Notes under the pieces: generated by a model
What the model saw: the letters and a program-made list of their open reading frames with translations, nothing else
What the model was told of the DNA's origin: nothing
The model's database searches: none
Shown here: positions 14,558-56,793 of the stretch, piece after piece
How the letters are laid out: every line of letters starts with the position of its first letter
How positions within the stretch are numbered: the stretch's first letter is position 1
From: Clostridia bacterium
GTDB lineage: Bacteria > Bacillota > Clostridia > Oscillospirales > CAG-272
Assembly (NCBI GenBank): GCA_017503865.1
Contig: JAFVSI010000063.1
Coordinates: 10,393 to 74,392, forward strand
DNA length: 64,000 nt
Direction: 5' to 3'
Position numbers and translations under genes: made by a program

Positions 14558-17500
14558 ATGGCAGATAATTTTGTTGGCATTAAGTTTGGTGTCGCTGGTG
14601 GCAGTAGCATCAGTGGCGAGTCCGGTCAGCTTATCAAGTCGCAATTGGATGCGCTATCAAAGCAAATACAATTAAAGGTCAACATCGACAAAAATCATTT
14701 TAACCAACAATTACAATCATTAAAAGCTGAGCTTGAGAGAACGCTTGGCGATTTAAAAATCACAATAAAAACGGATAATGTTACTGCCACTCAAGGGAAT
14801 GGTGGTACCTCCTCCGGCGGAGCAGGAGGAAGCTCCGCAGATAAGCAGGCGTTGTCTTATGACAACCTCAGAAGACAGCTTGAGGCATTGGCGATAGCCC
14901 AGCAGAAGCAAATTAAATCAGGTGCTGAGGGCGGCGTTAGCGCTACAATCGCAGAGCAAAAAATTAGAGACTTGACTGCCGCATACAGTGGTAACCGAAG
15001 AGAGGCTTTGGCGAACGGCAATATCACTGAAGAACAGGCGGCGTCTCTTGATCAATATTCTGCAAGCCTTGAAAGGGCGTTGCAGGTAGAGCAAAGGCGA
15101 GCATCGATTTCAGACCAAGCCTCAAAGGTCGAAATGAGTTATGCTAAACTTCAAAGAAATGCTCAATCCTTGTATACGGATGGCGGTTTTGACAAAGTAA
15201 TTGCCAGAAGCGCAGAAGCTAAAAAGCTTGTAGACGATTTCAATGCGAAGGTAAATTCAGCGTTCACGGATGATATGAGCATTGAAGACAAGCAGGCAAC
15301 CGTAAGACAACTAAACCAAGAGTTTATTGGCACGCAGTCTCAACTCAAAAAGATTCAGCGCGAAACAGATACTCTTGGCAATAAATTGAAGGACACTTTC
15401 CAAAGTAAGTTGCTTCAAACATTCGCGTATGCACTTATTGGTATTGCTACCAGAGCATTGCGCCAAGTGTACCAAAACGTGGTTGAACTCGATAAAGCAA
15501 TTACTGATTTGCAAATTGCAAGTGGTAAAACCAGAGAAGAAACAGCCCGTCTTGTTAAGAGCTACGCTGATTTAGCGAGACAACTTGGGGCAACAACAAT
15601 AGAGGTTGCGGCGAGCGCCGACACTTGGCTTCGTCAGGGTTATGATATAGAGGAAGCAAACGAGCTAATCAAAAACAGTATGATGTTGTCCAAACTCGGA
15701 CAGATCGAGTCTGCTGAGGCGGCAACTGCTTTGACGAGCGCAATGCGCGGATATAAGATGGAAGTGCAAGATAGCGCATCAATCGTCGATAAGTTTACCG
15801 CGGTTGATATGAAAGCCGCCGTAAGCGCAGGTGATATCGCCACCGCTATGGCTGAAACTGCGGCAAGCGCAGAGGTTGCTGGCGTTTCAATGGATAAGCT
15901 TATCGGTTACATAGCTACGGTATCCGAAGTAACCCAAGACGGTGCCGAGAGCGTTGGTACATTTTATAAGACCTTGTTTGCTCGTATGGGTAAGGTAACT
16001 GCCGGAGATTTTGTTGATCCCGATACAGGAGAATCCCTTAACGACGTTGAAACAACATTAAACGAGGTTGGCATTTCCCTTCGTATAAGTGAAACTGAGT
16101 TCAGAGAATTTGGAGATGTTCTTGATGAGGTTGGCGAAGCTTGGGATACATATGACTCTGTAACCCAACACGCGCTGGCTACTGCTTTTGCAGGTACTCG
16201 TCAGCAGGAAAAATTCATTGTGTTGATGGAGAACTATTCATCTGCAATGGAATACGCTGCGGTTTCGACGGAGTCTGCCGGAACTGCGCAGAAGAAATAT
16301 ACTGATGCTTATATGGAAAGCATTGATGCTTCCATAAATAAGCTTACTACGTCGTGGGAAAGCTTCTCGCAAACCATTTTGAGTAGCGACATTGTCGTAA
16401 CATTAGTGGATATAATGAGCACATTGGTCAACGTGATTGATGCGGTTCTGTCGTTTGGAGATTCTATGATCCCAACGCTTGCTCTTGTTGGCGTTTCTGT
16501 TGTGTTGCTTGGTAAGTTAATAACCAAAACATTCGGTGGCGCACTTGCAAGCTGGGGCGATTTTGTTGCGGCGATTCAGCTCGGCACTCAAACAATCGGG
16601 CAAGCTTTGCTTACTTTGGCAAAGAACCCTATGCTTTATATTACGGTACTAATTACTGCGTTCACTACATTCTCTGACAAGATGCCACCTTTGGCTCAAA
16701 TCATTGTTGGTGCAGTAATGCTGATCGGTACCGGCATAGCTATCGCTTGTAAAATGGCGAATACAGCTATTTGGGGCTTTATGTCCAGCAACCCTCTGGG
16801 TTGGATTTTGCTTGCAATTACGGCAGTCGTTTTGGCAATCACATCGGTTGTTAAGGCAATTGTAGGTTTTGCAAACGCATCAACTAAGGCAAAAGAGGAA
16901 GCGGTTGACGCCGCAGAAGCATCCAAAGAGGCTTGGGAAGATGCTGCGAAGGCAGTCGAAGATCTGGATGAAAAACTTGTATCCGCAAAGGACAGATTGA
17001 AAGAACTGCAAAAGCAGAGCAACAACGGTAAAATAACTCTTGTTGAGCAAGAGGAGATGGAGAGGCTTGAGGCATCTATTTCCAGCCTTGAAGCCGAAAA
17101 GGCGCTGCTTGAAGATATTGAAAAAGCAAAGAGAGCAGAGGCAGAAAAGGATGCATCGACTGCCGTTGGTACTATTTTAGGTGAAAAACTCTCTGATGCA
17201 TATGTGCAAGAGGACAATACCTTCTGGATGGGTGTAGCTCGTTCTCTTTCCTCCGTGTTGTCTCTCGGTATTTCTGATGCTTTCGGCTTCGGTATAAGTG
17301 ACTGGTCTATTAAGACCACGAGCGCCCAAGAATATGTTGACCAAATATTGGGCGACTGGGAGGGTGCAACTGAACAGCAAAGAGACTATGTGTTTGCATT
17401 CTATCAGCAATTGTCCGAGCAGAAGGATATGCTTTCTTATCATAGTGGAGAAAACCTTGAGCAATGGCAAAGAGATGCGAACGAGGCTTATAATACGTAC

Positions 17501-18970: not shown

Positions 18971-19753
18971 ATGTTTAACGCTACATACTTTACATATGAC
19001 GGCGTGTATTCTGGGGCTTACAATCTGAAGATTGCTTCGTTTGACAGTGAAACCGTTGAAGATACTGCGGTGTTCGCGCCGACATTGAACATAACAAAAT
19101 CGGCGAGAGCTCGTAGATTTTTGCACAACGGCATTGAATATGATGACGCTCCTGAATATACATTCAGCATCATTTCTCAAGAAGCGATTTCGGATGCTCA
19201 AAGGAGAGAGATACTGACTTGGCTGGTTGGCAGAAATGATTTCAAAAAACTTCAGATGCACCAGCCCGAGTTCGAAGACTATTATTACAACTGCGTTTTT
19301 ACGAGCGCGGATTTAATATATGTCAGAGGAAGGTGTCACGGCTTTACCGTTACGGCAAAATTCGACTCCATATTTGCGTATGGCAGACCGAAGAAAATAA
19401 CCGTGACAGGAAGTGGCACGACGCAAACTGTAAAAATTGTTAATAATTCCGACATCCCCGATGATTACATCTATCCCATCGTAACTTTTACAATGACGGA
19501 AGAGGGAAATGTAACCATTCTGAATACGAGTGAAGTGGTTCAAGCTGAGTTCAAGTTTACCGGAGTAAGGAATACTGAAACAATCACGGTTGATAACGAA
19601 CTCAAAATAATCGAAAGCACAATTGGAGGGGACAGGCTTTCCCTCTTTAATAAAAATTGGCTTAGGTTGCAGCACGGCGTTAATGTCCTTCAGGTAACTC
19701 TCAAAGGGACAATGACGATTACGGTGCCGACCTACGCTATGATAGGATTCTAA
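18971..19753 (+). CDS. distal tail protein (Dit) candidate
   Basis: 260 aa directly after the tape measure, the canonical siphovirus position. Confidence 0.6.
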   Translation: MFNATYFTYDGVYSGAYNLKIASFDSETVEDTAVFAPTLNITKSARARRFLHNGIEYDDAPEYTFSIISQEAISDAQRREILTWLVGRNDFKKLQMHQPEFEDYYYNCVFTSADLIYVRGRCHGFTVTAKFDSIFAYGRPKKITVTGSGTTQTVKIVNNSDIPDDYIYPIVTFTMTEEGNVTILNTSEVVQAEFKFTGVRNTETITVDNELKIIESTIGGDRLSLFNKNWLRLQHGVNVLQVTLKGTMTITVPTYAMIGF

Positions 19754-30500: not shown

Positions 30501-31263
30501 TCAAGGAGAAGTGGCTGGGAATGTGGAGATTGAATCCACTGGAGAAACTTATATAGCAAGTGTTAAGGTCACAGATGTGACTGGTGCAATGACGTGGTAT
30601 TATTTTAGTAGCTCAACGGGTACAAACGACGAAAATAATGTTTATTACACGTTTGCCAAGTCAAACAATGTGGCTCAAGGCAATACCCTAAGTTGGAATG
30701 GACTAACTATCGATGCAACCAATGGAGCGTTTAGGATGCCCGAGGCATATAATAATAAGTTTGTTATTATGGAATCTGGTGCAAAGCTGATTGTACCCGC
30801 ACCCGCCGGAAGCACAGTTCTGATTACGATGTATTCGTCTTACAACATCGGCGGTTATGAGAATACTATTTTAAGAGCTTATTTAACTGGAGAATTGTTT
30901 GACAATATTCCAACGATTCTCTCTACAATCCTTGTACCCGTTAAAAAGGGTTCGAGCCTCGGTGGTATGTCTTATGAGGTCGAATATATGTATGATAAAG
31001 TGTATGCTTTGTCTATGGCGGAAGTTGGATTAAGCACTACAACAAATCCTTATAAATACGAGGGTAGTCAATATCCTATTTATACGGATAGCGCAAGTAG
31101 GATTAAACTTGCAGACAACGGTGCCGGTTCCGCCCACCGCTGGTGGCTTCGTTCGCCCGTTTATGACAGCGGGAGCAGCTTCTACAATGTGGGCTCGTCT
31201 GGCGACAGTTACGGCAGCGGTGCGTACACCAACTGTCGCGTCGCGTTCGGCTTCGCGCTATAA
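24586..31263 (+). CDS. giant receptor-binding tail protein; DGR target
   Basis: Domains by eye, N to C:
- BppU-type N-terminus (aa 1-115).
- Coiled coil.
- CotH-like region (VDVQGTSSAGYKKKNFKIKMK...IDNRAKNFF...MPLPYDMDTAIG).
- Leucine-rich repeats.
- 4 Listeria-Bacteroides/InlB-B-type repeats.
- C-terminal WWLRSP...VAFGFAL lectin-like tip carrying VR1. Confidence 0.9.
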   Translation: MKITQELSLDTSRENAYKVVHAKQYDEDSRFLKVTITTRGEEIDIPSGATVVFGVKRADLESHDFAGVVNTDGTVTVPLTNWMLQVAGKCVCDVSIIKDGEKFSTLNFSVFVEYAPTNETDITEDEKYDIFVNLIERVENVVDHIGELEQSALNSEASAAASARSAEDASQALLNAHEQIESAQELADKAETAAEDAQRYADQANEYCNEFADIMDQVVEATGDYESLDDRINDVSIDANDLGLEQDAETGFVYPTYRNVRSENGIPLAATGGGGGTSITYSITLRNLMEGRSFSVAENSPAVVNFSYVSIDEDGYDDGAGVGSIYIGGLKVATVNVPQGENELDISPYLSNGENSVKIKIENSDGMSKSVSYTITVIAISLSSTLLEEGKTEGFIVCHDDTLTVYYTPTGSGVKTIHFIMDGVEIGTSEVKSTGRSQTYIIERQAHGAHTLEIYAEMTISDVTVTSNKLHLEILWVATDSSEPIISFIANVDSATQGETINVPYMIYDPSTEVANLTLSVIDEDGDEYTSQQLSVDRGEHIWNVIDYPAGEIKLRFNVGGHTKNKEITVYENSVEIDHITDSLAFYFDPAGRNNNEENPEYWSNGVVAAQFSGVGFATADGWLSDDNGSPIFRLLPGGTITIPYEMFSSDKRTSGCSIEVEMTTHNVRDYDSIVMSCLSNGRGVKIASQYAQLKSEQSEIGMQFKEDERVRVSFVVEPKSLNRLIYVYVDGVMCGAIQYPEDDNFAQSPSLGITIGAESSGIDIYKVYFYDKGLTRLEVLNNYIADRSTLSDRLDAYRRNDIFNANEEVVINKLPTTLPYMVISCSELPQTKGDKKTCEITYVNPSDSSKNFTASGVEIDVQGTSSAGYKKKNFKIKMKNGLTYTSDGTVSENYKLRDDSIPVSVFCMKADVASSEGANNVELVRLYNDVCPYTTDAQASDNRVRVGIDGIPCVVFWQNPTSGVTRFWGKYNFNNEKSNHEVYGLTNGCESWEICNNTSDRVVFKKSDYETGWTDDFEARYPEDNLDYTRLKRMTDWVASTNREAVQTEEEKAELLAKFKNEFEDYFVKTPMLFYYIFTEVFLMIDNRAKNFFPTTYDGVHWMPLPYDMDTAIGINNEGALVFDYDLEDTDHIDGEDVYNGQDSVLWCNIRDAFSEEIAEMYASLRSGTLFNYEETVKRFSEHQKPWCEAIWNEDAYEKYLEPLINDNDGSYLTMLQGNKASQREWWLHNGFRYRDSKYQTGDASKEFITLRCYNVGDITVTPYSHIWSRIKYGSYTVTERGKRNVPVTLSCPLDKMTDTEVYIYSADRLADIGDLSHLQVGYANFSMASKLQKLKLGDNAIMYQNPKLTELYVGNNELLTEIDIRNCVNLAQAIDLSGCTSIEKVYAAGSGISAATLPVGGKVSTLELPATITNLTIRNQKSLSVLSVAGYSNLATLRIENTPNVPIETILNSASSLNRVRLIGVSWNATSEDALALNIERLKSCGGMDANGDNTSIAVVNGVVYIDAISDELLEEIHEVFPDLTVVVGGVITYLVRYLNYDGTVLFKDLVNEGGDVIDPVALGLIDPPIRVGTETLGYAYIGWNHLPTNIHSNVVVLAQYEEVPSYLVTYQNPDGEILYEYYVAEHTDAIDPVSAGKIETPTMDGTSDVKYTFSSWNAIPTNVQGEHTVVAQYITAYAVRFYNESELLYTDWVNEGNDAVDPVVSGAIDAPTKQPSPEYRYVYSGWGILPTNITGSINVTAQFSSQSQVYNVIFYDKSNLLNVLYSTTASYGGNCVYSGSDLLIPDGCVFIGWMDNYGNSYSTNSVLLNEDNCKISGGIPVDIQLYPIIEVPTPKLPTTQKTSFEDYTWLEIKALSNAIASGTTNEVTVTYDDVEKIYSIHETSTGITSTVALFDTKDLTMNDGTTITMQVSGFLHDEDESGNKVGISMDTKNLYSTITKQHYSGSHTFAHYKVNGVQVADNQATYTHTQGEVAGNVEIESTGETYIASVKVTDVTGAMTWYYFSSSTGTNDENNVYYTFAKSNNVAQGNTLSWNGLTIDATNGAFRMPEAYNNKFVIMESGAKLIVPAPAGSTVLITMYSSYNIGGYENTILRAYLTGELFDNIPTILSTILVPVKKGSSLGGMSYEVEYMYDKVYALSMAEVGLSTTTNPYKYEGSQYPIYTDSASRIKLADNGAGSAHRWWLRSPVYDSGSSFYNVGSSGDSYGSGAYTNCRVAFGFAL
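29185..30010 (+). repeat. four tandem ~71-73-aa coding repeats (B-repeat/Flg_new-like)
   Basis: Units start near 29185, 29404, 29621 and 29836. Each reads Y(L/A/N)V.(Y/F)....(G/E)..L......(E/Y)G.D..DPV.......P........Y.(F/Y).(G/S)W...PTN......V.AQ(Y/F). Confidence 0.7.
31121..31254 (+). repeat. DGR variable region VR1
   Basis: 134-nt alignment with TR1 (31826-31959) has 25 mismatches by hand count; 24 fall on TR adenines. Confidence 0.9.
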
Positions 31264-31284
31264 TCTAAAATCTAACTACTATGT

Positions 31285-31324
31285 GAGCAACTTGACCGCC
31301 GTGATTGGCGGTCAATAGTTGCTC
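31285..31324 (+). other. GC-rich hairpin downstream of VR1 (candidate DGR target-recognition cruciform)
   Basis: GAGCAACTTGACCGCC - GTGATT - GGCGGTCAA(TA)GTTGCTC. No T-run follows. No equivalent hairpin after TR1. Confidence 0.55.
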
Positions 31325-31364
31325 GACAGCAAAACTATAAAAAACAAAAAAAGAAGGTTATAAT

Positions 31365-31787
31365 ATGTCGGTTCTTAAAAGCAATAGAGGTCAATCAAAG
31401 ATGCAGTTTTTAGAGACCGCGAGAGAGTTGACCGAATTTACTAAGACACAATGTGTGAAACTCCCAAAGAGATATACATTCTTTGGTGTCCAGAGAACAT
31501 GGGAATGTGCTGACAATATTTTTGCCAACATTAAGCGGGGAAATAGCATTTATCCCACAAACCCTCATGAGGCACAAATGCGAAGAGATTATTTTTTGAT
31601 TGCTTTGGCAGATTTGCACGTTCTTGCCGCTTACATAGATGACATAAAGCGGCGTTTCCCAATTAAGGATACCGTGATAGGACAATGGGTGGAGATGGTA
31701 ACAACAGAACAAAAATTGTTGAAATCAATACTTGAAAAAGATAAAGAACGGTATTCGAAATTATGGTCAGAGCAAAATAATATTTGA
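31365..31787 (+). CDS. avd: DGR accessory variability determinant (Avd, four-helix-bundle family), copy 1
   Basis: 140 aa. MSVLKSNRG..MQFLETAREL...LPKRYTF....IxxxADNIFANIKRGNSI layout matches the Avd / 23S-IVS protein family. Sits between VR and TR. Confidence 0.8.
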   Translation: MSVLKSNRGQSKMQFLETARELTEFTKTQCVKLPKRYTFFGVQRTWECADNIFANIKRGNSIYPTNPHEAQMRRDYFLIALADLHVLAAYIDDIKRRFPIKDTVIGQWVEMVTTEQKLLKSILEKDKERYSKLWSEQNNI

Positions 31788-31811
31788 CTTATAATATATT
31801 TAGGTTATATT
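31784..31811 (+). promoter_or_regulatory. candidate promoter for the TR1-spacer-RT1 transcript
   Basis: TTGACT (31784-31789), 16-nt spacer, TATATT (31806-31811). This would start RNA ~8-15 nt before TR1. Confidence 0.35.
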
Positions 31812-31825
31812 CTATGAAATTAGTT

Positions 31826-31959
31826 GTGCCGGTTCCGCCAACAACTGGTGGCTCCGTTCGCCCAATTATAACAACGAGAACAACTTCTACAATGTGAACT
31901 CGTCTGGCAACAATAACAACAACAATGCGAACAACAACTATCGCGTCGCGTTCGGATTC
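31826..31959 (+). repeat. DGR template repeat TR1
   Basis: AAY-rich template (NNWWLRSPNYNNENNFYNVNSSGNNNNNNANNNYRVAFG in the VR frame). Non-coding position between avd and RT. Confidence 0.9.
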
Positions 31960-32213
31960 TGTAGCCAATATACTCAACAAATGCGTATTTTGTTAATCAG
32001 ACATAGTAACACAATCAATTGTGCGAAATCAGTATTATGCTACAGAAGGAGGATATGACCTTTCCGCAGAATAATGGCGGATAAACAATCATCTCGATGT
32101 AGGCGGTCGGACGCTTCTTGCATAGCTCACAGGAGTGTATACCGTGGGTTTTATGACCGTTCCTCTATGTAATTAGCTGTATACACAAATTTATTATACG
32201 AGGTGGCAAAGGA

Positions 32214-33362
32214 ATGACAAGTAAAGAAAGGCACGAGGTAAGATACCAACGGCGTGCCGCAAGACGAAGAGCAAAACGAGAACAGGTGTGTAGTTTGTAT
32301 GATAACTACGATAACGTTTTTACTATTTCTAATTTATATCAATCGTATTTGCAAAGCCGGAAAAACGTTGGATGGAAAGATAGCGTTCAGCAATATAAGG
32401 CTAATGCGATTGTAAATATTCATAATACATATAAAACCATGCAAGCTCGCCAATTTAAGTCAAAGGGCTTTTATGTCTTTGATTTGTTTGAGCGAGGCAA
32501 ATTGCGAACCATCAGAAGCGTTAGCTTCAAAGAGCGTGTTGTGCAAAGATGTTTGTGTGACTACGCATTAACCCCGATATTATCGCGAACATTCATATAC
32601 GATAATAGTGCAAGCTTAAAAGGGAAAGGAATAAATTTTGCAATCGAGAGAATGACTACGCATTTGCACAGGTTTTATCGTGCCTATGGTGCAAATGGTT
32701 ATATTTTGCAATATGATTTCTCCAAATATTTCGATACAATTTCTCATGATAAAGTTAAAGAGATTGTATATAAGCACATAAAAGATCCAGATTTAAGACA
32801 ACTTACTATGTCATTGGTGAATGATTTTGGCGACATCGGGCTCGGGCTTGGTAGCCAAGTTTCTCAAATATTATCGCTTGCCGTGGCAAACGACATCGAT
32901 CACGCAATGAAAGAAAAACACAGGGCAAGATTTTATGGTCGATATATGGATGACGGATATATCATATCCCACGATAAGCAGTTTTTAAAAGAGTGCTACA
33001 ACACATTAAAAAGTATGTGCGCAGAGGCAGGCATCACTTTAAATACAAAGAAAACGCACATAACCCCACTTTCTCATGGGTTTACATTTCTTAAAATTAA
33101 ATTCTCATTAACTGCCTCTGGTAAAGTTGTTAGAAGACTATCGCACGATAGTAGCGTTCGTATGCGAAGAAAACTTAAAAAATTACGTAAAAAAGTTAAT
33201 GACGGGAAAATGGAAGTTCGTGATGTCGCGTGTTCTATGCAGTCATGGGTAGGTCATACTCTTAATATCGATGCATATAGAACAAGACAAAGGATGTTGC
33301 GATTATTTTATTCGTTATATAAAGATGATTTGAAAGGAAATAAAATATGTATAAAATACTAA
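32214..33362 (+). CDS. DGR reverse transcriptase, copy 1
   Basis: Carries LGLGSQVSQ (DGR-specific [LIV]GxxxSQ), RYMDDG (YxDD) and a thumb-like basic C-terminus. Confidence 0.9.
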   Translation: MTSKERHEVRYQRRAARRRAKREQVCSLYDNYDNVFTISNLYQSYLQSRKNVGWKDSVQQYKANAIVNIHNTYKTMQARQFKSKGFYVFDLFERGKLRTIRSVSFKERVVQRCLCDYALTPILSRTFIYDNSASLKGKGINFAIERMTTHLHRFYRAYGANGYILQYDFSKYFDTISHDKVKEIVYKHIKDPDLRQLTMSLVNDFGDIGLGLGSQVSQILSLAVANDIDHAMKEKHRARFYGRYMDDGYIISHDKQFLKECYNTLKSMCAEAGITLNTKKTHITPLSHGFTFLKIKFSLTASGKVVRRLSHDSSVRMRRKLKKLRKKVNDGKMEVRDVACSMQSWVGHTLNIDAYRTRQRMLRLFYSLYKDDLKGNKICIKY

Positions 33363-34066
33363 TTGGCGATACAATCGCCGGAGTGATCGATGTTCCGGTT
33401 TTTGTTCGATATCAACTACGTAATAAAAAAGTAGTTGTGTGTTCAAAAGAACAAGCTCAAGGTATATTATCACCAGATGGAACCACTGTATTTCAGATGG
33501 AAGGGATGGATGTAATTCCGGGAACCAAATACGAAGTTGCGACAATCATACCCATCGCAGAAGATGAATATCAGACTCTTTTGAAAATATTTCAAGAGAA
33601 TGAAAGCATAACTCCCGAGGGAGATCGTATCGATGTGGTCGGTAAGGCAACTTTAAAACTTGTAAGAGATGCAAAAATTGCCCAAATGAGCGATATTTGC
33701 AGCAAAACGATTGTTGATGGAGTAGATGTAATATTTGCTGACGGCAAAACACATCATTTTGATCTTACTATAGAAGATCAGCTTAATCTTATTACGCTAA
33801 AAGAAATGATTTCTATGGGATGTAACGAAATACCGTACCATGAAAAGGGTGGGCTTTGTAAAATGTATTCAGCTTCTGATATTGCTACGCTGATTGATGT
33901 AGCATCAAAGCACAAAACATATCATCTCACTTATTTTAATTCGTTGAAAAATTACATTATGAATATCGGAGAAGTTACGGCAGTTGATAGTGTAAGATAT
34001 GGAATGAGCATACCCGAAGAATATTGTTCTGATATTCTTTTAGAAATGCTTAGAGGTGACGAATGA
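33347..34066 (+). CDS. hypothetical protein (C-terminal region possibly DUF4376-like)
   Basis: 239 aa, overlaps the RT1 stop by 16 nt. The DUF4376 resemblance (HHFDLTIEDQLNL...IPYH...) is recalled only weakly. Confidence 0.45.
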   Translation: MYKILIGDTIAGVIDVPVFVRYQLRNKKVVVCSKEQAQGILSPDGTTVFQMEGMDVIPGTKYEVATIIPIAEDEYQTLLKIFQENESITPEGDRIDVVGKATLKLVRDAKIAQMSDICSKTIVDGVDVIFADGKTHHFDLTIEDQLNLITLKEMISMGCNEIPYHEKGGLCKMYSASDIATLIDVASKHKTYHLTYFNSLKNYIMNIGEVTAVDSVRYGMSIPEEYCSDILLEMLRGDE

Positions 34067-34488
34067 AAAAATTCGTTAAACATGGAACTCTTTTCTCGAT
34101 ATTTGGTGTCTCATATGTTTTAATTGAGCTGATTTATCGTGGTTACTCTCACTGGAGTATGTTTGTTCTTGGAGGAATATGCGGTATTTGCATTGGTATG
34201 CTAAACGAGTGCATCCCATGGGAGATGCCACTATGGTTACAGGCTGGTATAGGCGCTGTAATCATCACGGTGCTTGAGTTTGTATGCGGGTGCATAGTTA
34301 ATCTGGCGCTCGGGTGGAATGTATGGGACTATAGCAACGCTCCACTCAATATTTTGGGGCAGGTATGTTTACCTTTTGCAATCATCTGGTTTGTGATAGC
34401 ACACTTCGGGATTGTCTTGGATGACTACTTGCGCTACTGGCTTTTCAAAGAAGAGAAGCCACGCTATACATACAAATTTAAACATTAA
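34063..34488 (+). CDS. four-TM membrane protein (resembles the PF06541 'putative ABC-transporter type IV' family)
   Basis: Four hydrophobic helices and a GWNVWDYS motif. ATGA overlap with the upstream gene. Confidence 0.55.
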   Translation: MKKFVKHGTLFSIFGVSYVLIELIYRGYSHWSMFVLGGICGICIGMLNECIPWEMPLWLQAGIGAVIITVLEFVCGCIVNLALGWNVWDYSNAPLNILGQVCLPFAIIWFVIAHFGIVLDDYLRYWLFKEEKPRYTYKFKH

Positions 34489-34499
34489 CAGGAGTAGAA

Positions 34500-34913
34500 A
34501 TGTCGGTACTTAAAAAGGACAGAGGCGAAAGCGCGGTTCAGTTCTTGGAAACTGCGCGGAATTTAGAAATATTCACCCTCAGAACTTGTGCCAAATTTCC
34601 AAAGCGTTATACATTTTTAATTACTGCTGAGATAGCTCAGCTATCCAGAAGCATTTACAACAATGTAAAGTCTGCGAATAGCATATTTCCTACAAATCAA
34701 TCAGAGGTACAAATGCGCCGCAACTTCTTTACGAAGGCAAACTGTGATCTTCAATGTTTGGTATCCCAACTGGACGTTGCCAAGGTTATGTTCGGAGAAG
34801 AGGTCAAGGTGGGAACTTGGTGCCAATGGATGGATTTGATAGAGGAAGAAGCAAAGCTAATTTCAGCTATCAAGAAAATAGATAAAGAACGCTATAAGGA
34901 CTTACCTCTTTAA
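34500..34913 (+). CDS. avd: DGR accessory variability determinant (Avd), copy 2
   Basis: Clear paralog of 31365-31787 (MSVLKKDRGESAVQFLETARNL...FPKRYTF...NSIFPTN..E.QMRR). Confidence 0.8.
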   Translation: MSVLKKDRGESAVQFLETARNLEIFTLRTCAKFPKRYTFLITAEIAQLSRSIYNNVKSANSIFPTNQSEVQMRRNFFTKANCDLQCLVSQLDVAKVMFGEEVKVGTWCQWMDLIEEEAKLISAIKKIDKERYKDLPL

Positions 34914-34954
34914 GCGTTCTTTTTATATGGGTTATAAGCCGTTTTGTCTTTGTT

Positions 34955-35060
34955 TTGCGTTCCCCTTACCGTGGTAACAGTAACTACTTCTGCTACGTGT
35001 ATGGCGGTGACTTCAATTACAACTACGCCAGCAATCACTACGCTGTCGCCTTCGGATCTT
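34955..35060 (+). repeat. putative DGR template repeat TR2 (boundaries approximate; no VR in window)
   Basis: Non-coding AAC/TAC-rich tract reading LRSPYRGNSNYFCYVYGGDFNYNYASNHYAVAFG. Shares the 3' GTCGC(G/C)TTCGGAT end with TR1 and has the same avd-TR-RT position. Confidence 0.6.
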
Positions 35061-35273
35061 GCACAAAATGCCCGACAAAGTAGCCTTTAAGGTGAAATCT
35101 GTGCGTGTGCAAAAGGGGCATATAACCCTTCCTTCGGGATAAAGAAATACGTTGATGTGGTCTATCGGACGCTTCTTGCATTGCTCGCGATTGTGGTAGC
35201 GAGTTTAATGATAGGTACCACTATGCAGTTATTCCCACAATATTTTACTGTACGGGGTATAAAGGAATTAAAA

Positions 35274-36434
35274 ATGAATAGTAAGGAAAGACACGAGTTG
35301 AGATATCAGCGGCGCAAACAAAAGCGCCTTGAAAATAAAAAGCGTTATCAGGATTGTTATGATTACGATAAGGTGTTTACGTTCGAGAACCTTTATCGTA
35401 GCTATGAGAAATGTTGCGCGGGCGTCAGTTGGAAGCCCAGCACACAACTCTATAAGGCGAATGCCTTGATGAATATAAATCGAACATATAAGAGCCTACG
35501 AGAAGAAAGCTATGTTCCGAGAAAGCTAAATGAATTTGACATCATTGAACGTGGGAAGCAACGTCACATACAAAGTCCTACAATGAACGATAGGATAGTG
35601 CAAAGATGCTTTTGCGATTATAGTTTGATGCCGATTATTTGCAGGACAATTATCTATGATAATACCGCCTGCGTCAAAGGACGCGGATTGAGTTTTACCA
35701 TAAAGAGAATGACTCGGCATTTAGAGAAGTATTACAGAGAGCAGGGAAGTAATGAGGGATACGCATTACTATTTGATTTCTCGCAGTATTTTAAGAACAT
35801 CAGACACGACGTGGCTCTATCAATACTTGATGAAAAGATACCAGACAAGCGGTTGGTTAGGCTTGCAGAACTTATCATAAAGCAATATGGCAATGAAGGG
35901 TTGGGGCTCGGTAGCCAAGTGTCGCAATGTTGTGCATTGGCGCTCCCGGACAAGCTCGATCACCTCATTAAAGAGAAGCTAAAGATAAAGTATTATTGTC
36001 GCTATATGGATGATGGTTGCATTATCCACCCCAACAAAGATTATTTGCGTTATTGTCTTCAAGAGATTAAATCCGTATGCAGTGAGCTTGGAATTATAAT
36101 CGACGAAAAGAAAACGCAAATTGTAAAGATAAAATCTGGCATCAAGTTCCTTAAAGCTCGCTTTATTCTGACGAAGAGTGGACGAGTCATAAGGAAGCCG
36201 TATGCCAAGAGCGCAACGAAAATGCGTAAGAAACTCAAAGCGTTAAAGCTGAAGCTTGATGCAGGGCTCGTAACCTTTGCTGACGTTTGGACACCGTTCC
36301 AATCGTGGCTTGGTTATCACAAACAATTTCACGGATACTGGGCAAGACGAAGAGTCTGCTCTTTATTCAATAATTTATTTTACACAGGAGGAAACACAAA
36401 TGGATTGGCAAACAGTTTTACTTTCGGTACTTAG
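35274..36434 (+). CDS. DGR reverse transcriptase, copy 2 (start trimmed to MNSKERHELRYQRR)
   Basis: Carries LGLGSQVSQ and RYMDDG. The N-terminus aligns with RT1 MTSKERHEVRYQRR. The track's extra 39 codons overlap the conserved spacer RNA. Confidence 0.9.
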   Translation: MNSKERHELRYQRRKQKRLENKKRYQDCYDYDKVFTFENLYRSYEKCCAGVSWKPSTQLYKANALMNINRTYKSLREESYVPRKLNEFDIIERGKQRHIQSPTMNDRIVQRCFCDYSLMPIICRTIIYDNTACVKGRGLSFTIKRMTRHLEKYYREQGSNEGYALLFDFSQYFKNIRHDVALSILDEKIPDKRLVRLAELIIKQYGNEGLGLGSQVSQCCALALPDKLDHLIKEKLKIKYYCRYMDDGCIIHPNKDYLRYCLQEIKSVCSELGIIIDEKKTQIVKIKSGIKFLKARFILTKSGRVIRKPYAKSATKMRKKLKALKLKLDAGLVTFADVWTPFQSWLGYHKQFHGYWARRRVCSLFNNLFYTGGNTNGLANSFTFGT

Positions 36435-36795
36435 TATCGTATTGACCGCGTTGGTAACGTGGGCATCGGAGAGATTGATTTCTTATCTCAACACAAAGAT
36501 CACTAACACCAAGTACGCCAACTATCTCACGGACGCGGTGGAAATCGTTACCCGCGCAGTGAAGTCTACATATCAGACATATGTAGAAGCGTTGAAGGAC
36601 AAGAATATGTTTACTGAGGAAGCTCAGAAAGAAGCCTTGACTCGCGCAACAAACTTGGCAATGTCACAGCTATCGCAGGAACTCCAAACATTCATTACGA
36701 CCAATTTTGGCGACCTCGAAGGATGGATTCAGAATGCGATTGAGTCGAGCTTGTACGATCTGAAGAACAAACCGACGAGCGATAAAGCCAACTAA
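36400..36795 (+). CDS. holin, LL-H-like family (start trimmed to MDWQTVLL)
   Basis: AGGAGGAAACACAA RBS before the ATG at 36400. N-terminal TM helix, then a long helical domain ending ..IQNAIESSLYDL, as in LL-H-type holins. Confidence 0.55.
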   Translation: MDWQTVLLSVLSIVLTALVTWASERLISYLNTKITNTKYANYLTDAVEIVTRAVKSTYQTYVEALKDKNMFTEEAQKEALTRATNLAMSQLSQELQTFITTNFGDLEGWIQNAIESSLYDLKNKPTSDKAN

Positions 36796-36821
36796 AAATC
36801 GCGCCTGAGCGCGCGGGAAAT

Positions 36822-36866
36822 AAAAAAGCGACCTATGGAATTAACCATAAGTCGCTTATTTTTTTG
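36822..36866. terminator. bidirectional terminator between convergent holin and integrase genes
   Basis: A-run, AGCGACCTATGG / CCATAAGTCGCT stem (one mismatch), then a T7 run. Confidence 0.7.
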
Positions 36867-36867
36867 A

Positions 36868-38055
36868 TTATTCGCTTAGTATATCCGTTAAAGTGCTTTG
36901 CATTATTGATGCAACCCTACTGATGCTGTCATCCTTGAGGTGGGTGTATATTTTCTCGGTAATACGAGAGTTGGAGTGACCTAAGTATTTAGCCATATGG
37001 GCATAGTCAATTCCGCGCTCAATACCGAGCGTGCAGAATGTGTGTCTAAGGTCGTGTATACGGATGTGCTTCAGGTTGTGTTTAGCAAGGAAACGCGAGA
37101 ACTTGTTGTTCATCTGGTTCGGGCGCAAGGGAAGTCCCTTTTCGCTGACGATAACATATTCTCCGAGTATTCCTTTTTCTTCTTGCTGTTTACGATATTC
37201 GAGCAAACAATCTTTTAGTAGAGGATCCATTACTAACGCTCTGCGGCTCTTCTTTGTTTTTGGTTCCTTGGTAATAATCTTCCCTTTGATCGGTGTTCTC
37301 ACTTGGGCTATATAAATGCGTCCTGTTTCGAAGTCGATGTTATCCCACGTCAACCCCGCTATTTCGCCGCGACGTAGCCCTTCCCACATTCCTAAATACA
37401 CAAATGCCTTCAGCCGTAAGTCTTGACTTTTATCTATGAGAGCGAGCAACTCTTTTACTTCTTGCGCAGTGTAAGCAGTCCCTTCGAATTCTTCGACGGG
37501 GAGTTTCCTTATCCTCTCGACAACATTATCGCTGATATACTCACAGTCCTTTGCGTAGTTAAAAACGGCGCACAGGAAAGTTCTGTCGGAGTTAATTGTT
37601 TTGGCTTTAAGTTTTCCTTCTTTTACGAGTCCGTCGATGTACTCCTGTACATCAATCTTTTTCACCCGGATAAGCTTTTTCTTTCCAAGTCCACGCGCCA
37701 CAATTCTTCGCAGGATATTGTAGTAATCCTCTTGAGTGGTAGGAGCGAGTGGTTTGTTTTCGATATAAGCCTTGGCACATTCTTCGATAGTGATTTGTGT
37801 ATTGGTACTGTGCTTGCCAAGATTAGTTCTTTCGTATTCGTGTTTCTTCAGGAGAGCCTCTGCTTCCTTGAGGGTATCACACGTCTTGAACGTTCTCTGT
37901 GGCTTACCAAGTTCGGCGCCGAGGTACAATGTCACGATGTACTTGCCAGTCTTTTTATTGCGAGCAATATTTCTCTTAACTGTTTCTCGTTCGCCTGTTC
38001 CTTTTTTACCTTGTTGAGTTCTTGTTAATTCTTTTACGTCTTCATTTTTCGTCAT
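36868..38055 (-). CDS. int: tyrosine integrase
   Basis: 395 aa with GLRRGEIAGL (box I Arg), HDLRHTF (HxxR) and YLGHSNSRITEKIYTHL (catalytic Tyr). Next to an attP-like region. Confidence 0.9.
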   Translation of the reverse strand: MTKNEDVKELTRTQQGKKGTGERETVKRNIARNKKTGKYIVTLYLGAELGKPQRTFKTCDTLKEAEALLKKHEYERTNLGKHSTNTQITIEECAKAYIENKPLAPTTQEDYYNILRRIVARGLGKKKLIRVKKIDVQEYIDGLVKEGKLKAKTINSDRTFLCAVFNYAKDCEYISDNVVERIRKLPVEEFEGTAYTAQEVKELLALIDKSQDLRLKAFVYLGMWEGLRRGEIAGLTWDNIDFETGRIYIAQVRTPIKGKIITKEPKTKKSRRALVMDPLLKDCLLEYRKQQEEKGILGEYVIVSEKGLPLRPNQMNNKFSRFLAKHNLKHIRIHDLRHTFCTLGIERGIDYAHMAKYLGHSNSRITEKIYTHLKDDSISRVASIMQSTLTDILSE

Positions 38056-38097
38056 AGCTTCCTTTCCGTGTTTATTTGAGATCCTCTGCTACATATT

Positions 38098-38126
38098 ATT
38101 ATACACCATATTTAGACACTTGTCAA
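38098..38126 (-). promoter_or_regulatory. consensus sigma-70/SigA promoter of int, with a GTCTAAATATGG box in the spacer
   Basis: Minus strand reads TTGACA-AGTGTCTAAATATGGTG-TATAAT (17-nt spacer), ~36 nt upstream of the int start codon. Confidence 0.7.
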
Positions 38127-38148
38127 GAGTTTTTATGAAATTTCAGTT

Positions 38149-52220: not shown

Positions 52221-52970
52221 TTAAATCTTGTTATCGCAGTATTCTCTGTGGTTACAAAGATGTTCGCTGAAGAATTCGTCGCAAGTTGGAGCATAGTCCC
52301 AACACTCACGTATCTCTTGTACCGTATCCTTTGCCCACTTAAGTGCTTCGTTGAAATCTTCTTCCTTAAACGGAATGTCTATCGTAGTGTTCTTTCGGAA
52401 CATCATAAACCGTAATACGTCTGGGAACCTCCCGTATTTCTTCTTGACGTACAGAGCATACAAATACAGTTGCCTTGCATACTCAGCCTGTTCTTTTTTG
52501 TTCTTGAAAGAACTTTTCGATTTGTAGTCTTGGATAATCAAGCGACCGTTTTTGTCCTTGAAAACCAAGTCGATAACGCCGGTAAATACCCAGTCATCGA
52601 CATCTATATCGAACTCTCCTTCCACCTCAAGAATCTCTCTGTCGGCATAGCCCGAGAAGTTCTTAAGATAATTGAGTCCTTGCTCATAATAGAGCTTTCT
52701 CATATTCTTGCAGTACGGAGTAGAGGGGAATTTCTCGGGGACTGCGGTGTCGAATTCCCATTCGTAGATTGTCGTTAAATCCCAAAGCTCTATTTCTCCT
52801 CTTGCGTACCTTTCCATAAGGGAATGGACTTCTGTTCCATAAGAACTGAAACAGTTTCCAATTCCTCGCTTATGGAGTATGTATGTTTGCATATACCCGT
52901 ATTTACAGGTATGGAAGGACGATAACTTCGAAAAACTGAACCGTTCCTTTTTTTCAGTTACCAAGGACAA
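52221..52970 (-). CDS. PD-(D/E)XK nuclease, Cas4/RecB-like with Fe-S cysteines
   Basis: N-terminal C (FHTCKYGY), IDLVF...IIQDYKS core, QLYLYALY, and C-terminal C-x5-C-x9-C-x6-C. Confidence 0.75.
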   Translation of the reverse strand: MSLVTEKKERFSFSKLSSFHTCKYGYMQTYILHKRGIGNCFSSYGTEVHSLMERYARGEIELWDLTTIYEWEFDTAVPEKFPSTPYCKNMRKLYYEQGLNYLKNFSGYADREILEVEGEFDIDVDDWVFTGVIDLVFKDKNGRLIIQDYKSKSSFKNKKEQAEYARQLYLYALYVKKKYGRFPDVLRFMMFRKNTTIDIPFKEEDFNEALKWAKDTVQEIRECWDYAPTCDEFFSEHLCNHREYCDNKI

Positions 52971-53347
52971 GAGTCGTCACTGGTCGATGCGGGAGCCTCG
53001 GAAACAGTGCTTGCCTTTGCGGTATTATCGTTTGATGCAGGAGCATCACTTGCTTCGATTGTTGCCTCAAGAATGAGGAATCTGAAGCGCGACTTGGTGT
53101 TGCCGTCGTTATCCGTGTAACGCTCGTTGGTGAACTTGGACTTCGTAATGGTGATTCTGTCACCTTTCTTGAGTCCCTTAAGTGAGTTGACGGCGTGTCC
53201 GATTGCACGAGGGAACCATCCGGAATTGATGTAATTGCCCTCGGCGTCCTTCTCCGATGTGGTCATCTGGAGATCCATGTATTTGCCATTCTCGGCAACC
53301 TTTACATCCCAGACCTTACCAAAAATCTTGTTGGTGTTATAGATCAT
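52958..53347 (-). CDS. ssb: single-stranded DNA-binding protein
   Basis: OB-fold-sized N-domain, low-complexity linker and acidic tip (SDDSCPW). Sits between ERF and the nuclease. Confidence 0.7.
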   Translation of the reverse strand: MIYNTNKIFGKVWDVKVAENGKYMDLQMTTSEKDAEGNYINSGWFPRAIGHAVNSLKGLKKGDRITITKSKFTNERYTDNDGNTKSRFRFLILEATIEASDAPASNDNTAKASTVSEAPASTSDDSCPW

Positions 53348-54054
53348 TTGCTTTCTCCTTTTGTGGTTTTCTTGGTGGTAGCAGGTTTGTTGGCGGCAAG
53401 AGTTTCAAACTCCTTCATAACCGCTGTGCAAACCTCAATGGATTTGATGCTTGAGGGGTTCTGGTTACCGTTGTTATACTTGCCAACGATGCCCATAACC
53501 TCATCTTTTGCAATGCCGGATTTGATGAGTTGAGAACCCATCGCAACAACTTCCTTGACGGCTGCATTGAGAACCTTCTCGTCGTCGTAGTTCTCGGCTT
53601 CTTTCTGCTTGCTTCTGTAGTTGTCAGGATCCGCCTCGGATGTAGCCAACTGGAGAGACTTCATAAGGAAGTATCTGTTGCAGTAGGTTTCAGCGGCGCC
53701 AAATGCCTGAGAAGCATCTTCCATCTGTCCAACCAATACCCACGGAACCTCAACGGTTTCCTCGGGCTTATCTACGTTAACCCAAGTATAAATGGTGTCG
53801 GCGTGAACAATGAACTCGTTGATAGTCTTGTCCTTGGTTTTCTGGTATGTATAGGGCATAACCTGAAGTGTGCCCGGAACGATGGAATGGTACAGCATAA
53901 CTCCGTACTTCTGCATACCCGCAGTTACTTTCGCCTGAATCTCTTCCTCGGGAACATACTTGTAGTTGTATCCCGACTTAGTCTTCTGGAGAATACCTGC
54001 GGCGTCAGCGATCTTCAGGAGCTTCTGGTGAATGTTCATTTCAGTTCTCTCCAT
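53344..54054 (-). CDS. ERF-family single-strand annealing protein
   Basis: QKLLKIADAAG...YKYVPEEEI...QAFGAAETYCNRYFLMKSL matches the ERF signature (Q..GsA.TY.rRY.L). GGAGG RBS. Confidence 0.75.
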   Translation of the reverse strand: MERTEMNIHQKLLKIADAAGILQKTKSGYNYKYVPEEEIQAKVTAGMQKYGVMLYHSIVPGTLQVMPYTYQKTKDKTINEFIVHADTIYTWVNVDKPEETVEVPWVLVGQMEDASQAFGAAETYCNRYFLMKSLQLATSEADPDNYRSKQKEAENYDDEKVLNAAVKEVVAMGSQLIKSGIAKDEVMGIVGKYNNGNQNPSSIKSIEVCTAVMKEFETLAANKPATTKKTTKGESK

Positions 54055-54472
54055 CTGCGACCTCCTCTACGATTTCGGTAGTCTTTTTCTTCTGCCTTAC
54101 CGCGGACTTGAGCATTCTCTGAATGTCGCGGTGACTGATACCGTGCGCCTTGCAAAGACACATCAGAAGTCCCTTTTCCTCGTCAAACGGCTCGTTATGA
54201 GCTTTGGCAACGAACTTCTTTCCGTTTACCCACATAATGGTCGCGGGTTCGTTGAACAGAACCTTGATACCGCCAAATGTGGAAGGTGTGGGCTCTGCCT
54301 TAACAGGCTTCTTCGGCTTGTTCTCATTCTGCTCAAGTTTCACAACCTTCATATCAGCAGGGATTCCGCCGAGTAAAGCTTTGAAAAACTCTTGTTCTGC
54401 CGGAGAAACATTTGAGGTGAACTGGATTGATCCTCCGTTAAGGTCAATCGGGTTTGAATTTCTGGTTGGCAT
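54041..54472 (-). CDS. hypothetical protein (start 54472 or 54352)
   Basis: GAAAGGAA RBS before 54472. The alternative ATG at 54352 gives an ATGA overlap with the upstream ORF. Confidence 0.45.
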   Translation of the reverse strand: MPTRNSNPIDLNGGSIQFTSNVSPAEQEFFKALLGGIPADMKVVKLEQNENKPKKPVKAEPTPSTFGGIKVLFNEPATIMWVNGKKFVAKAHNEPFDEEKGLLMCLCKAHGISHRDIQRMLKSAVRQKKKTTEIVEEVADGEN

Positions 54473-54840
54473 AGGTTAAATTCCTTTCGTGTATTTATTT
54501 CGGCAACTCCGTTGAGAATCATCGACTCCCAATCGTCATCGTCGTATTTGTGTTTTTGTTCTTCTAATTGATAGAAGAGCTGTCTTTCTGCTTGCTGATG
54601 TATCTTCCATTCTGGTGCAGATACATTGGAGCAATTTGGCGGATCAATAAATTCGCCGTAGTATGTTGCGTTCGTTGGCATTCGAACGAAATCATCTACC
54701 AAGTCATCGAGCGTGGTGATCGACTCATAAGTATGGTTGAGTATTCCTCGAACCATTGAGCTTAGAGCATCTACGGAAACCCCGAATGCCTCAGAGACTT
54801 GTTGTATCATATCAGCAAATGGTTCTATATCAATCGGCAT
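54349..54840 (-). CDS. hypothetical protein containing a WESMILNG motif
   Basis: 163-aa ORF. The last 52 codons overlap the alternative start of the next gene. Confidence 0.5.
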   Translation of the reverse strand: MPIDIEPFADMIQQVSEAFGVSVDALSSMVRGILNHTYESITTLDDLVDDFVRMPTNATYYGEFIDPPNCSNVSAPEWKIHQQAERQLFYQLEEQKHKYDDDDWESMILNGVAEINTRKEFNLCQPEIQTRLTLTEDQSSSPQMFLRQNKSFSKLYSAESLLI

Positions 54841-55123
54841 TTTGTACTCCTTCGAGGATCATCTCTTCCCACGATGCGGGATCTTCGACGACTTCTGGCT
54901 CTTCATCGGGTTCGAGAAAAGCCTTGACGTCCAATGCTCTGCATCTCAGGGTTAGCGAAGCGCTTGCTTCTCCCGTAAAGACAACCCTTCTATCGGCAGT
55001 ATAAACTTCTTCGCTATCTCTCGATAGTTCGATTGAGCCAAGCTCTTTAAGTTCTATCTCGTAGCAAATCCCTTTGTCGTCATAAAGAGCTAAAATTCCT
55101 TTAGTCGGTTGTCTTGGCGACAT
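54830..55123 (-). CDS. hypothetical protein ending in a WEEMILEG motif
   Basis: 97-aa ORF with an acidic C-terminus. Confidence 0.5.
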   Translation of the reverse strand: MSPRQPTKGILALYDDKGICYEIELKELGSIELSRDSEEVYTADRRVVFTGEASASLTLRCRALDVKAFLEPDEEPEVVEDPASWEEMILEGVQNAD

Positions 55124-55125
55124 CG

Positions 55126-55698
55126 TTACTTCCTCGTTTCTTCCAAAAGATTGGACGAGATGATGTCAGCAACACTGAGTAGTGTTACGAGCTTCGACAT
55201 ATCCTGAGCTTTGCTCAAGCCGTAATCTCCGCCCTTGACTGCTGCATCGAATCCACTCATATGCCAGCGGATTGCAAGCAACTCGTCCATTGTGAGCTTG
55301 ATGTACCACTGAAGGATGATACAGCTCTTTTCGCCGTGACCGAGAGGAACCTTTTCGTCCACTTCCCAAACGGCTTTGGCAACCCACATTCCGTCTTCCT
55401 TGACGTTGCGGGTGCCTTGTTTGTAGTAGTTAATCTTGCAAACATCGTGGAATAGGGAAGCGATTGCGAGAGACTCGCGAGAGATGCTTCCATCACCGTA
55501 AATCTCATAGAGTTTTACGAGCTGTTCGAAGACGTTGATTGAGTGCTCACACAGACCACCAGCGTAATTGCCGTGGAATCGTGTGCTTGCCGGAGCATCG
55601 TAGAAGTCAGACTTCTCAAGCCACGCGAGCAACTCATCAAGTCCTTCGCGATGTATTTCCTGTTTGCAGATTGAAATGAATTTTTCTTTTAAATTCAT
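55126..55698 (-). CDS. HD-domain phosphohydrolase
   Basis: H...HD pattern: FHGNYAGGLCEHS ... LFHDVCK ... GHGEKS. Confidence 0.8.
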   Translation of the reverse strand: MNLKEKFISICKQEIHREGLDELLAWLEKSDFYDAPASTRFHGNYAGGLCEHSINVFEQLVKLYEIYGDGSISRESLAIASLFHDVCKINYYKQGTRNVKEDGMWVAKAVWEVDEKVPLGHGEKSCIILQWYIKLTMDELLAIRWHMSGFDAAVKGGDYGLSKAQDMSKLVTLLSVADIISSNLLEETRK

Positions 55699-55707
55699 AT
55701 TCCCTCC

Positions 55708-55725
55708 GTGTCTAAATATGGTTTG
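55708..55725 (+). promoter_or_regulatory. GTGTCTAAATATGGTTTG box abutting the SD of the HD gene
   Basis: Minus strand reads CAAACCATATTTAGACAC-GGAGGGAAT-ATG. Confidence 0.5.
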
Positions 55726-55756
55726 AAATTGTTAAAAATAAAGAGATTTTTCTGCA

Positions 55757-56302
55757 TCAAAGATGACTTTGATTGAGATATTTTTCAAGCCATTCGTCGA
55801 ATAATTCATCGGCGCAAGCTCTTATGCGACGTTCCTCGGATTTCGAGATGCTCTTATCAAAAGCCTGTGCCCATTTCTGAGCACGTTCCTGTGCAAAGAA
55901 ATCTCTGATCTCCATCAGAATCTTGCCGAGCTTGTTGTTTCCTTCGCCGTCGCATACGCCCCATTCTTTGTCGCCCCAATCGTTTCCTTCGATTAGTTCA
56001 GCGGGAGCAGTAGCGAGGAGCCGTTCCATAAGGTCGTAGTTCTGGAAGAACTTTGCAAAGCAAACTCTTCTCATTACATCTTCCTTAACAGCTTCCCAGT
56101 CGGGGCGAAGTTTAACTCTTCTGCCGAGTCGTTTAGCTTCCGATGGATTAAGGGAAGAGAACGAAGATGCAACCTCGGGACACTTCATTGCTTGGAACGC
56201 AGCTTCATTGTTCTTGTATGTAATACCTCTGTAGGTTACATCAGCAGAATAGAAGTTGCTAAGGAAGAAGTACTCTCCCTTAAATTCTGAAATAGGTTTC
56301 AT
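55757..56302 (-). CDS. NADAR (YbiA/DUF1768) family protein
   Basis: FLSNFY, NNEAAFQAMK, W..VKEDVMRRV..AKF.QN..L...LL.T....L.EGN..GD..WG and GNNKLGKILMEIR align along E. coli YbiA as recalled. Confidence 0.85.
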   Translation of the reverse strand: MKPISEFKGEYFFLSNFYSADVTYRGITYKNNEAAFQAMKCPEVASSFSSLNPSEAKRLGRRVKLRPDWEAVKEDVMRRVCFAKFFQNYDLMERLLATAPAELIEGNDWGDKEWGVCDGEGNNKLGKILMEIRDFFAQERAQKWAQAFDKSISKSEERRIRACADELFDEWLEKYLNQSHL

Positions 56303-56762: not shown

Positions 56763-56793
56763 ATTCTTCTCCTTATGTATTGATGTTGTTTGG

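Follow-up and report, generated by a model that had tools for sequence, protein, structure and literature searches.

The prototype of the diversity-generating retroelements (DGRs) is mtd-avd-TR-brt of Bordetella phage BPP-1. Many phage-associated DGRs with non-adjacent targets, located up to 50 kb from the reverse transcriptase (RT) gene, were described by Wu et al. 2018 (PMC5758913), together with two phage DGRs that lack an adjacent target and have their only target at a distance of 20 kb; about 10% of the DGR-bearing complete genomes were reported to hold several DGRs. The short-contig survey of Roux et al. 2021 (PMC8144416) was, by its own account, unable to see remote targets. Gut prophages with a distal second variable region (VR) have been reported (Nature 2025; PMC12629997), the distal VRs being found near counter-defence genes, and the Faecalibacterium phages Lelie and CP11 carry 'large and small' DUF6273 targets (PMC11792537). 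Two tandem DGRs, DGR-1 and DGR-2, are present in a 64,000-nucleotide stretch of DNA from a Clostridia bacterium (GCA_017503865.1, contig JAFVSI010000063.1, positions 10,393 to 74,392 of the forward strand), which is referred to here as the window. DGR-2 (positions 34,500 to 36,434) contains a gene for an accessory variability determinant (avd2), a template repeat (TR2) and a reverse transcriptase gene (RT2). Its variable region (VR2) is absent from the window and was identified beyond the right end, 16.3 kb from position 64000, where it lies 3' in a small open reading frame (ORF).

The window corresponds to positions 25,114-89,113 of ENA ERZ28653793 scaffold_336 (99,419 bp) in reversed orientation, and the two sequences agree at 100% identity over 11.4 kb at either end of the window (records L004 and L012). 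The proteins encoded at the window ends indicate that the window is part of a ~100-kb SPbeta-like phage with Yon/Yom Pfam families. The stretch of scaffold_336 that bears VR2 was reached via a rare neighbouring ORF, by homology search and cluster-member lookup; this record (L039, scaffold_336 positions 6341-26643) overlaps window positions 62471-64000 at 100% identity. VR2 is located about 45.2 kb from TR2 in inverted orientation and ends 13 nt ahead of the stop codon of the target gene, at the 3' end of an ORF with a predicted variation-tolerant ligand-binding fold. Because VR2 is present on the same scaffold, DGR-2 is not an orphan DGR, and its "missing" target is a window-boundary effect. 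A VR located elsewhere in the phage was the first explanation offered in the original prediction, which also held that a VR2 outside the window would make the locus ordinary; the VR2 on the window's own source scaffold bears out both statements.

Within the window, an A-masked scan of both strands with overlapping 40-mers (at most 4 mismatches) returned TR2 alone, and tblastn with the true target protein matched only TR2, the template repeat of DGR-1 (TR1) and the C-terminus of the tail fibre. Both searches agree with the earlier statement that the 64 kb contain no cognate variable region. The 10-kb flanks past each window end (L004, L012) also contained no VR2, and a DNA search of deposited phage genomes with window positions 33300-37000 gave no match. 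The A-masked TR2 pattern detected two close cassette relatives (L001, L002) and a third contig (L003) in IMG/VR. The match on the third contig lies at the 3' end of an ORF that is 245 aa long, or 239 aa when read from the ATG chosen by gene callers, and differs from TR2 at adenines only.

Over 101 nt, TR2 and VR2 of the same scaffold differ at adenines only, 11 of 21 being substituted, and agree at each of the 80 non-A positions; four further TR2/VR2 pairs also have no non-A mismatches. A single contig of 102,220 bp, ERZ28633639 scaffold_30, combines the two-cassette layout of the window (L029) with the target (L038); in its pair 10 of 21 adenines are substituted, again with no non-A mismatch. 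TR2 of this relative differs from the window TR2 by one C-to-T change and the same T is found in its own VR2, which is direct evidence of information flow from TR2 to VR2. The target sequences form clusters at 90% identity with 65 and 102 distinct sequences. Among 29 target variants, all 16 codons that have an adenine at position 1 or 2 in TR2 vary, with up to 9 residues at one codon, compared with one of the 18 other TR2 codons (Fisher p=1.5e-8); upstream of the VR, 9-11 of 202 columns vary. Since the hypervariation is confined to the A codons and the C-to-T change of TR2 has been copied to VR2, DGR-2 is considered, with a probability of about 0.9, to be intact, active and acting in trans within the phage. 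The coordinates of the features are listed in Table 1.

Table 1. Location of the DGR-2 elements, their targets and the neighbouring features (window positions unless a record or scaffold is named)
Feature	Location	Strand	Description
avd2	34500-34913	+	Accessory variability determinant of DGR-2, 137 aa
TR2, template repeat	34955-35055 = scaffold_336 54059-54159	+	101-nt core, 21 adenines and 80 non-A positions
RT-2 RNA (Rfam RF03077), between TR2 and RT2	35066-35280	+	132.1 bits, model 1-222 of 222
RT2, DGR-type reverse transcriptase	35274 (ATG)-36434	+	386 aa; frame open from GTG 35157
DGR-2 target gene	L039 1771-2490	opposite strand to TR2	239 aa, DUF6273, ends in VR2
VR2	L039 2377-2477 = scaffold_336 8717-8817 = virtual window ~80,297-80,397	-	
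Relative on ERZ28633639 scaffold_30	Cassette record 54357-60770; target 13894-14613		
Second target gene	L036 2230-2949, JAZURO010000093.1	-	239-aa DUF6273, coiled-coil-like N-terminus
Operon upstream of target	L038 4233-9986; L039 1-1756		L039 part on the window's scaffold beyond the right end
DGR-1 overall	31121-33362	+	Context for DGR-2
VR1	31121-31254	+	3' end of the 2225-aa tail fibre gene
avd1	31365-31787	+	
TR1	31826-31959	+	134 nt, 81% identical to VR1
RT-2 RNA of DGR-1	31992-32226	+	RF03077, 121.2 bits, model 1-222 of 222
RT1	32214-33362	+	382 aa
239-aa protein, spacer	33347-34066	+	Tail-fibre-like, phrog_1348 E=3.6e-13
141-aa membrane protein, spacer	34063-34488	+	PF06541

The accessory protein of the DGR, Avd2, is encoded beside RT2. 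Avd2 matches PHROG 3206 ('Avd protein of DGR', E=4.5e-8) and has no Pfam, NCBIfam or PADLOC match; a protein identical to it is indexed in 185 blocks of a public contig collection. The A-rich, non-coding TR2 tract (34955-35056) translates as LRSPYRGNSNYFCYVYGGDFNYNYASNHYAVAFG. RT2 shows profile matches to RVT_1 (E=5.6e-17) and phrog_1423 (E=2.4e-88), and its motifs GLGLGSQVSQ and YMDD are of the DGR type, in which (I/L/V)GxxxSQ replaces QGxxxSP and is found together with YxDD. The 386-aa version of RT2 is the one chosen by gene callers on other contigs. In protein comparisons, Avd2 is 45% identical to the avd1 product and RT2 is 46% identical to RT1. As judged from these sequences, the two cassettes are old paralogs and not the result of a recent duplication, because their Avd and RT pairs are only 45-46% identical. 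The description of the cassette in the original prediction holds in all these respects: an avd-TR-RT unit with every listed element in place, starting about 1.1 kb downstream of RT1 (the avd2 start was measured 1,138 nt past the RT1 stop), with paralogous Avd and RT genes, LGLGSQVSQ and YMDD readable in the RT2 translation, an AAC/TAC-rich non-coding tract, and a common 3' end, GTCGC(G/C)TTCGGAT, in TR1 and TR2.

The RT-2 RNA was detected by covariance-model search (gathering score of RF03077, 40), and in the relative L029 RF03077 is likewise full length and above the gathering threshold. The RNA downstream of TR2 presumably forms the section of the DGR template RNA to which RT and Avd are recruited and which is involved in priming. 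In the window, both TR-to-RT spacers are full-length RF03077, exactly at the expected site of the structured spacer of a DGR template RNA. Because the family occupies this expected site, RF03077 probably represents the RNA element of the DGRs in this RT lineage. Beyond the TR2 core, to about position 35071, there is partial and mismatched similarity, resembling an IMH* (initiation of mutagenic homing) element, with the VR2 flank. Both VR2 copies, the second of which is described below, share the 3' flank CTTT(T/A)GTATCTAATCTTT, unlike the TR2 flank. A hairpin with a 9-bp stem (z=-3.2) starts 30 nt past the end of the VR2 core and 20 nt past the target stop codon. Stable hairpins are also found downstream of VR1 and of the second VR2 copy, and all of them appear to fit the inverted repeat described downstream of DGR VRs.

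The target of DGR-2 belongs to PF19789 (DUF6273) by Pfam and is a stand-alone, C-type-lectin-like protein of 239 aa with no NCBIfam or PADLOC match. The AlphaFold model of the target has a mean pLDDT of 89.9 and is confident from residue 29 onward. When the model was compared with BFVD, the C-termini of tail-collar fibres, receptor-binding proteins and other DUF6273 proteins were recovered (E to 1.6e-12, TM ~0.7), and a sequence profile search of the PDB with the target gave chance matches only. Residues 1-28 contain a conserved CxxC-x8-CxxC motif. Distant homologues of the target in IMG/VR (L017-L022) have no TR within 10 kb, and only L023 has an adjacent TR.

In the proposed mechanism, avd2, TR2, the RT-2 RNA and RT2 would be transcribed, and RT2 with Avd2 would reverse-transcribe the TR2 RNA, misincorporating opposite adenines. 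The cDNA would then replace VR2, the last ~101 nt of the DUF6273 gene on the opposite strand, by which 16 codons of the C-terminal binding surface of the target would be diversified. DGR-1 would do likewise for the adjacent tail fibre, so that the phage would run two TR/VR pairs separately, each served by an Avd and an RT of its own. Priming, adenine mutagenesis and cDNA homing are postulated by analogy with the paradigm of Bordetella phage BPP-1. According to work cited in PMC5758913, avd-TR-brt is able to act from a plasmid.

A second target was detected by a scan of 185,579 species genomes with TR2. Three matches were obtained, all in the metagenome-assembled genome (MAG) JAZURO01 (Eubacteriales bacterium), where the cassette (L035), the standard target (L037) and the second target (L036) are located on three separate contigs. 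The VR of the second target differs from TR2 at adenines only, with 10 of the 21 adenines substituted. The second target gene is an insertion of about 800 bp with tRNA genes on either side; it lies in the early region, where a DUF2828/DUF7788 gene follows downstream, and is absent from the relatives L038 and L016. Both VR-bearing contigs of JAZURO01 align to the phage early region. From these sequences, DGR-2 appears to have two remote targets in some genomes.

The absence of VR2 from the window would also be expected if DGR-2 were an orphan or decaying cassette, a duplicate without a target that diversifies nothing. This explanation is almost certainly wrong, since the same scaffold contains a VR2 whose mismatches to TR2 are without exception at adenines and the target is hypervariable exactly at the A codons. 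Avd2, TR2 and RT2 are conserved over many contigs, and it is the DGR-1 cassette that has been swapped or has decayed in relatives. The identity of 45-46% between the paralogs argues against recent duplication, and together with the hypervariable target it contradicts the earlier suggestion of a recent duplicate that is losing its target. The host-gene target, which had also been suggested, was not seen; in the sole TR2-bearing bacterial MAG, both VRs are on phage-like contigs. It is very unlikely that DGR-2 mainly acts in trans outside the phage, on a host chromosomal gene or another mobile element, although DGR components can act in trans and TR2 and the two VR2 copies occupy three separate contigs in JAZURO01, so that their physical linkage there is only presumed. 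Two ~100-kb phage scaffolds each contain both the cassette and the target, the alignment of both VR-bearing JAZURO01 contigs to the phage early region places those VRs in phage sequence as well, and no match was found outside JAZURO01 among the species genomes scanned. Moreover, remote host targets would not be inherited with the phage, an argument made in PMC5758913.

The target gene is preceded by genes for a retron-type RT (464 aa) and an RNase H, and diversification of VR2 by these enzymes instead of RT2 was considered, since the order RT, RNase H, target is kept even where the target is 51-59% identical. The adjacent RT contains QGTPFSP and YADD, which are motifs of the retron/group-II type; it has its best matches among retron RT models and is without the DGR motif. 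No TR copy is found within 10 kb of the target, and no RT-2 RNA or other Rfam RNA except tRNAs is present nearby. TR2, which lies beside RT2, is alone in agreeing with VR2 at every non-A position, and a role of the adjacent enzymes in place of RT2 is therefore improbable.

The reading of DGR-2 as an intact and active cassette that acts in trans on a gene of the same phage has several points against it. The signs of DGR-2 activity come from between-sample variants only. The similarity between the 3' flanks of TR2 and VR2 is only partial, leaving the IMH putative, and the hairpins downstream of the VRs could be transcription terminators. A Foldseek comparison of the target with the PDB gave no significant match, the hits being limited to weak ones with C-type lectin and TaqVP. 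Residues 1-28, including the CxxC motif, are modelled at low confidence, and the 239-aa target could be either a virion or an intracellular protein.

The target gene is located on the early-gene strand, 14 nt after the RNase H gene, in a conserved operon. The operon contains, in order, genes for an uncharacterised protein of ~460 aa, an uncharacterised protein of ~300-340 aa, a ThiF/E1-like protein, the retron-type RT, RNase H and the target. The retron-type RT matches PADLOC RT_II-A (2e-44) and, below the cutoff, NCBIfam retron St85. The gene order is retained in relatives with the 51-59% identical target, including a prophage in a Christensenellaceae MAG. An Rfam scan near the target yielded tRNAs only, with no retron ncRNA and no RT-2 RNA. 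Downstream of the target are genes for phosphoesterases and an AAA_33 kinase, a tRNA array and an NAD+-salvage cluster. The tRNA array comprises at least 12 genes (L039 9029-12088, placed 5.7-8.7 kb beyond window position 64000), between the phosphoesterase/kinase genes and the NAD+-salvage cluster. The NAD+-salvage cluster encodes an NMN transporter, isochorismatase, NAMPT, a Macro domain protein and NAD synthase, with NADAR encoded further on, inside the window.

The genes of the NAD+-salvage cluster are part of a large auxiliary or counter-defence-like island that extends from about window position 52500 to 64000 and into L004/L039. Besides the NAD+-salvage genes and NADAR, the island encodes a PRPP-transferase-like protein, Thg1, Band_7, an RNA ligase, a PemK toxin, an HD protein, an ERF recombinase and a second tyrosine recombinase (333 aa). 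A family of 48-nt repeats, TTATTATAC..CATATTTAGAC..TTGTCAAGAG, was identified in the early region at 38089-38136, 57115-57162 and 59126-59173; the copies are 60-83% identical and may be repeated promoters or operators. No signal peptide is present in the target, whose N-terminus is Zn-ribbon-like, and a tentative, rather unlikely proposal is that DGR-2 might be a dedicated hypermutator of a non-virion, early-expressed intracellular binding protein. If so, the phage would diversify a recognition module for counter-defence or superinfection exclusion and not a receptor-binding protein, and the neighbouring RT and RNase H might join in with that module or be guided by it.

DGR-1 is a genuine DGR with an adjacent tail-fibre target. 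Two genes separate it from DGR-2, encoding the 239-aa and membrane proteins that had been described in the original prediction (ORFs 33347-34066 and 34063-34488, the latter with PF06541). Neither of these spacer genes carries a VR according to the A-masked scan and tblastn with the true target. The 239-aa spacer ORF was tried as a candidate target of DGR-2 and rejected, as it is without a lectin-type C-terminus or similarity to TR2. Its length equals that of the true DGR-2 target by coincidence, the two proteins being unrelated, and in its place relatives have a 247-264-aa protein with a weak DUF4376 match. Retargeting of VR1 by TR2, or of VR2 by TR1, was also rejected, since the repeats differ at many non-A positions. 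Sigma-70-type promoter matches in the 31-37 kb region are no commoner than in shuffled sequence.

The DGR-1 slot is variable among close relatives (L002 7140-8386; L025 1053-1870; L026-L034). Some relatives have the same 382-aa RT1 as the window, others have in this slot a different cassette, which brings a TR/VR pair of its own and an RT of 429 aa that is 38% identical to RT1, and one relative has a truncated 185-aa RT with no TR/VR. Across relatives with differing DGR-1 slots, Avd2 is identical, TR2 is essentially unchanged and the RT2 gene follows each time. DGR-2 is the conserved cassette, whereas the DGR-1 slot has been swapped or has decayed in relatives.

DGR-2 resembles the BPP-1 prototype in the presence of an Avd protein, the position of the TR between avd and RT, the (I/L/V)GxxxSQ and YxDD motifs, the A-only TR/VR mismatches, the location of the VR 3' in the gene for a C-type-lectin-like ligand-binding protein and a putative inverted repeat after the VR. 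It differs from BPP-1 in that its target is non-adjacent, about 45 kb away on the opposite strand, and is a stand-alone DUF6273 protein of 239 aa encoded in the early/auxiliary region and not a tail fibre of the late operon; in addition, the spacer RNA of DGR-2 is Rfam RT-2. The logic is that of the DGRs with non-adjacent targets in PMC5758913, with a distance here of ~45 kb and a tandem, divergent DGR that has its own adjacent fibre target. Two intact DGRs side by side had been called unusual. Such an arrangement is uncommon but documented, as shown by the share of DGR-bearing complete genomes with several DGRs in PMC5758913. The locus also illustrates how remote targets escape DGR surveys that are built on short contigs or fixed windows, a limitation that PMC8144416 acknowledges for its own survey.

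In Roseburia phage Shimadzu (LR596903.1, L050), one TR matches two VRs (sites 4936-5064, 5583-5711 and 19467-19595). The tail-fibre VR has 17 of 32 adenines substituted and one non-A mismatch. The second VR is the 3' end of the small orf43, which lies in the early region at a distance of 13.9 kb from the TR and next to genes for Erf and DNA methyltransferases; orf43 shows a weak match to the DGR-2 target (28.6% identity). Because Shimadzu also pairs a tail-fibre VR with a small, remote early-region VR, a large fibre target combined with a small one far away in the early region is a design that recurs among gut Clostridia phages. The present locus joins PMC12629997 and Shimadzu as a case in which temperate phages of the gut diversify small proteins encoded outside the tail module.

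Among deposited sequences, RT2 has its closest relative (42% identity) in MT837512.1, an uncultured gut phage fragment that also encodes a small DUF6273 protein 38% identical to the target. Unlike in the window, the small DUF6273 gene of MT837512.1 is located ~0.9 kb upstream of the RT gene, a classical adjacent layout as judged by gene positions alone. Phage DGRs whose sole target is non-adjacent have already been published, as have distal VRs in early or counter-defence regions, and the locus is an ordinary, tidy example of these. It provides a natural example of two divergent DGRs in a ~100-kb gut Clostridia phage, one for a giant tail fibre and the other for a small early-region DUF6273 protein. 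If there is no cross-talk, the two DGRs, each with its own Avd, RT, TR and RT-2 RNA, would be a ready-made pair for engineering. In Shimadzu, Lelie, CP11 and the prophages of PMC12629997, one cassette serves both targets, whereas here there are two paralogous cassettes, each with a private TR; and unlike in the Shimadzu/Lelie/CP11 group, the gene for the small target comes after those for a retron-type RT and an RNase H. The locus is distinguished from the known systems by the division of the two tasks over two divergent tandem cassettes, the conservation of DGR-2 and the location of its target in a retron-RT/RNase H operon.

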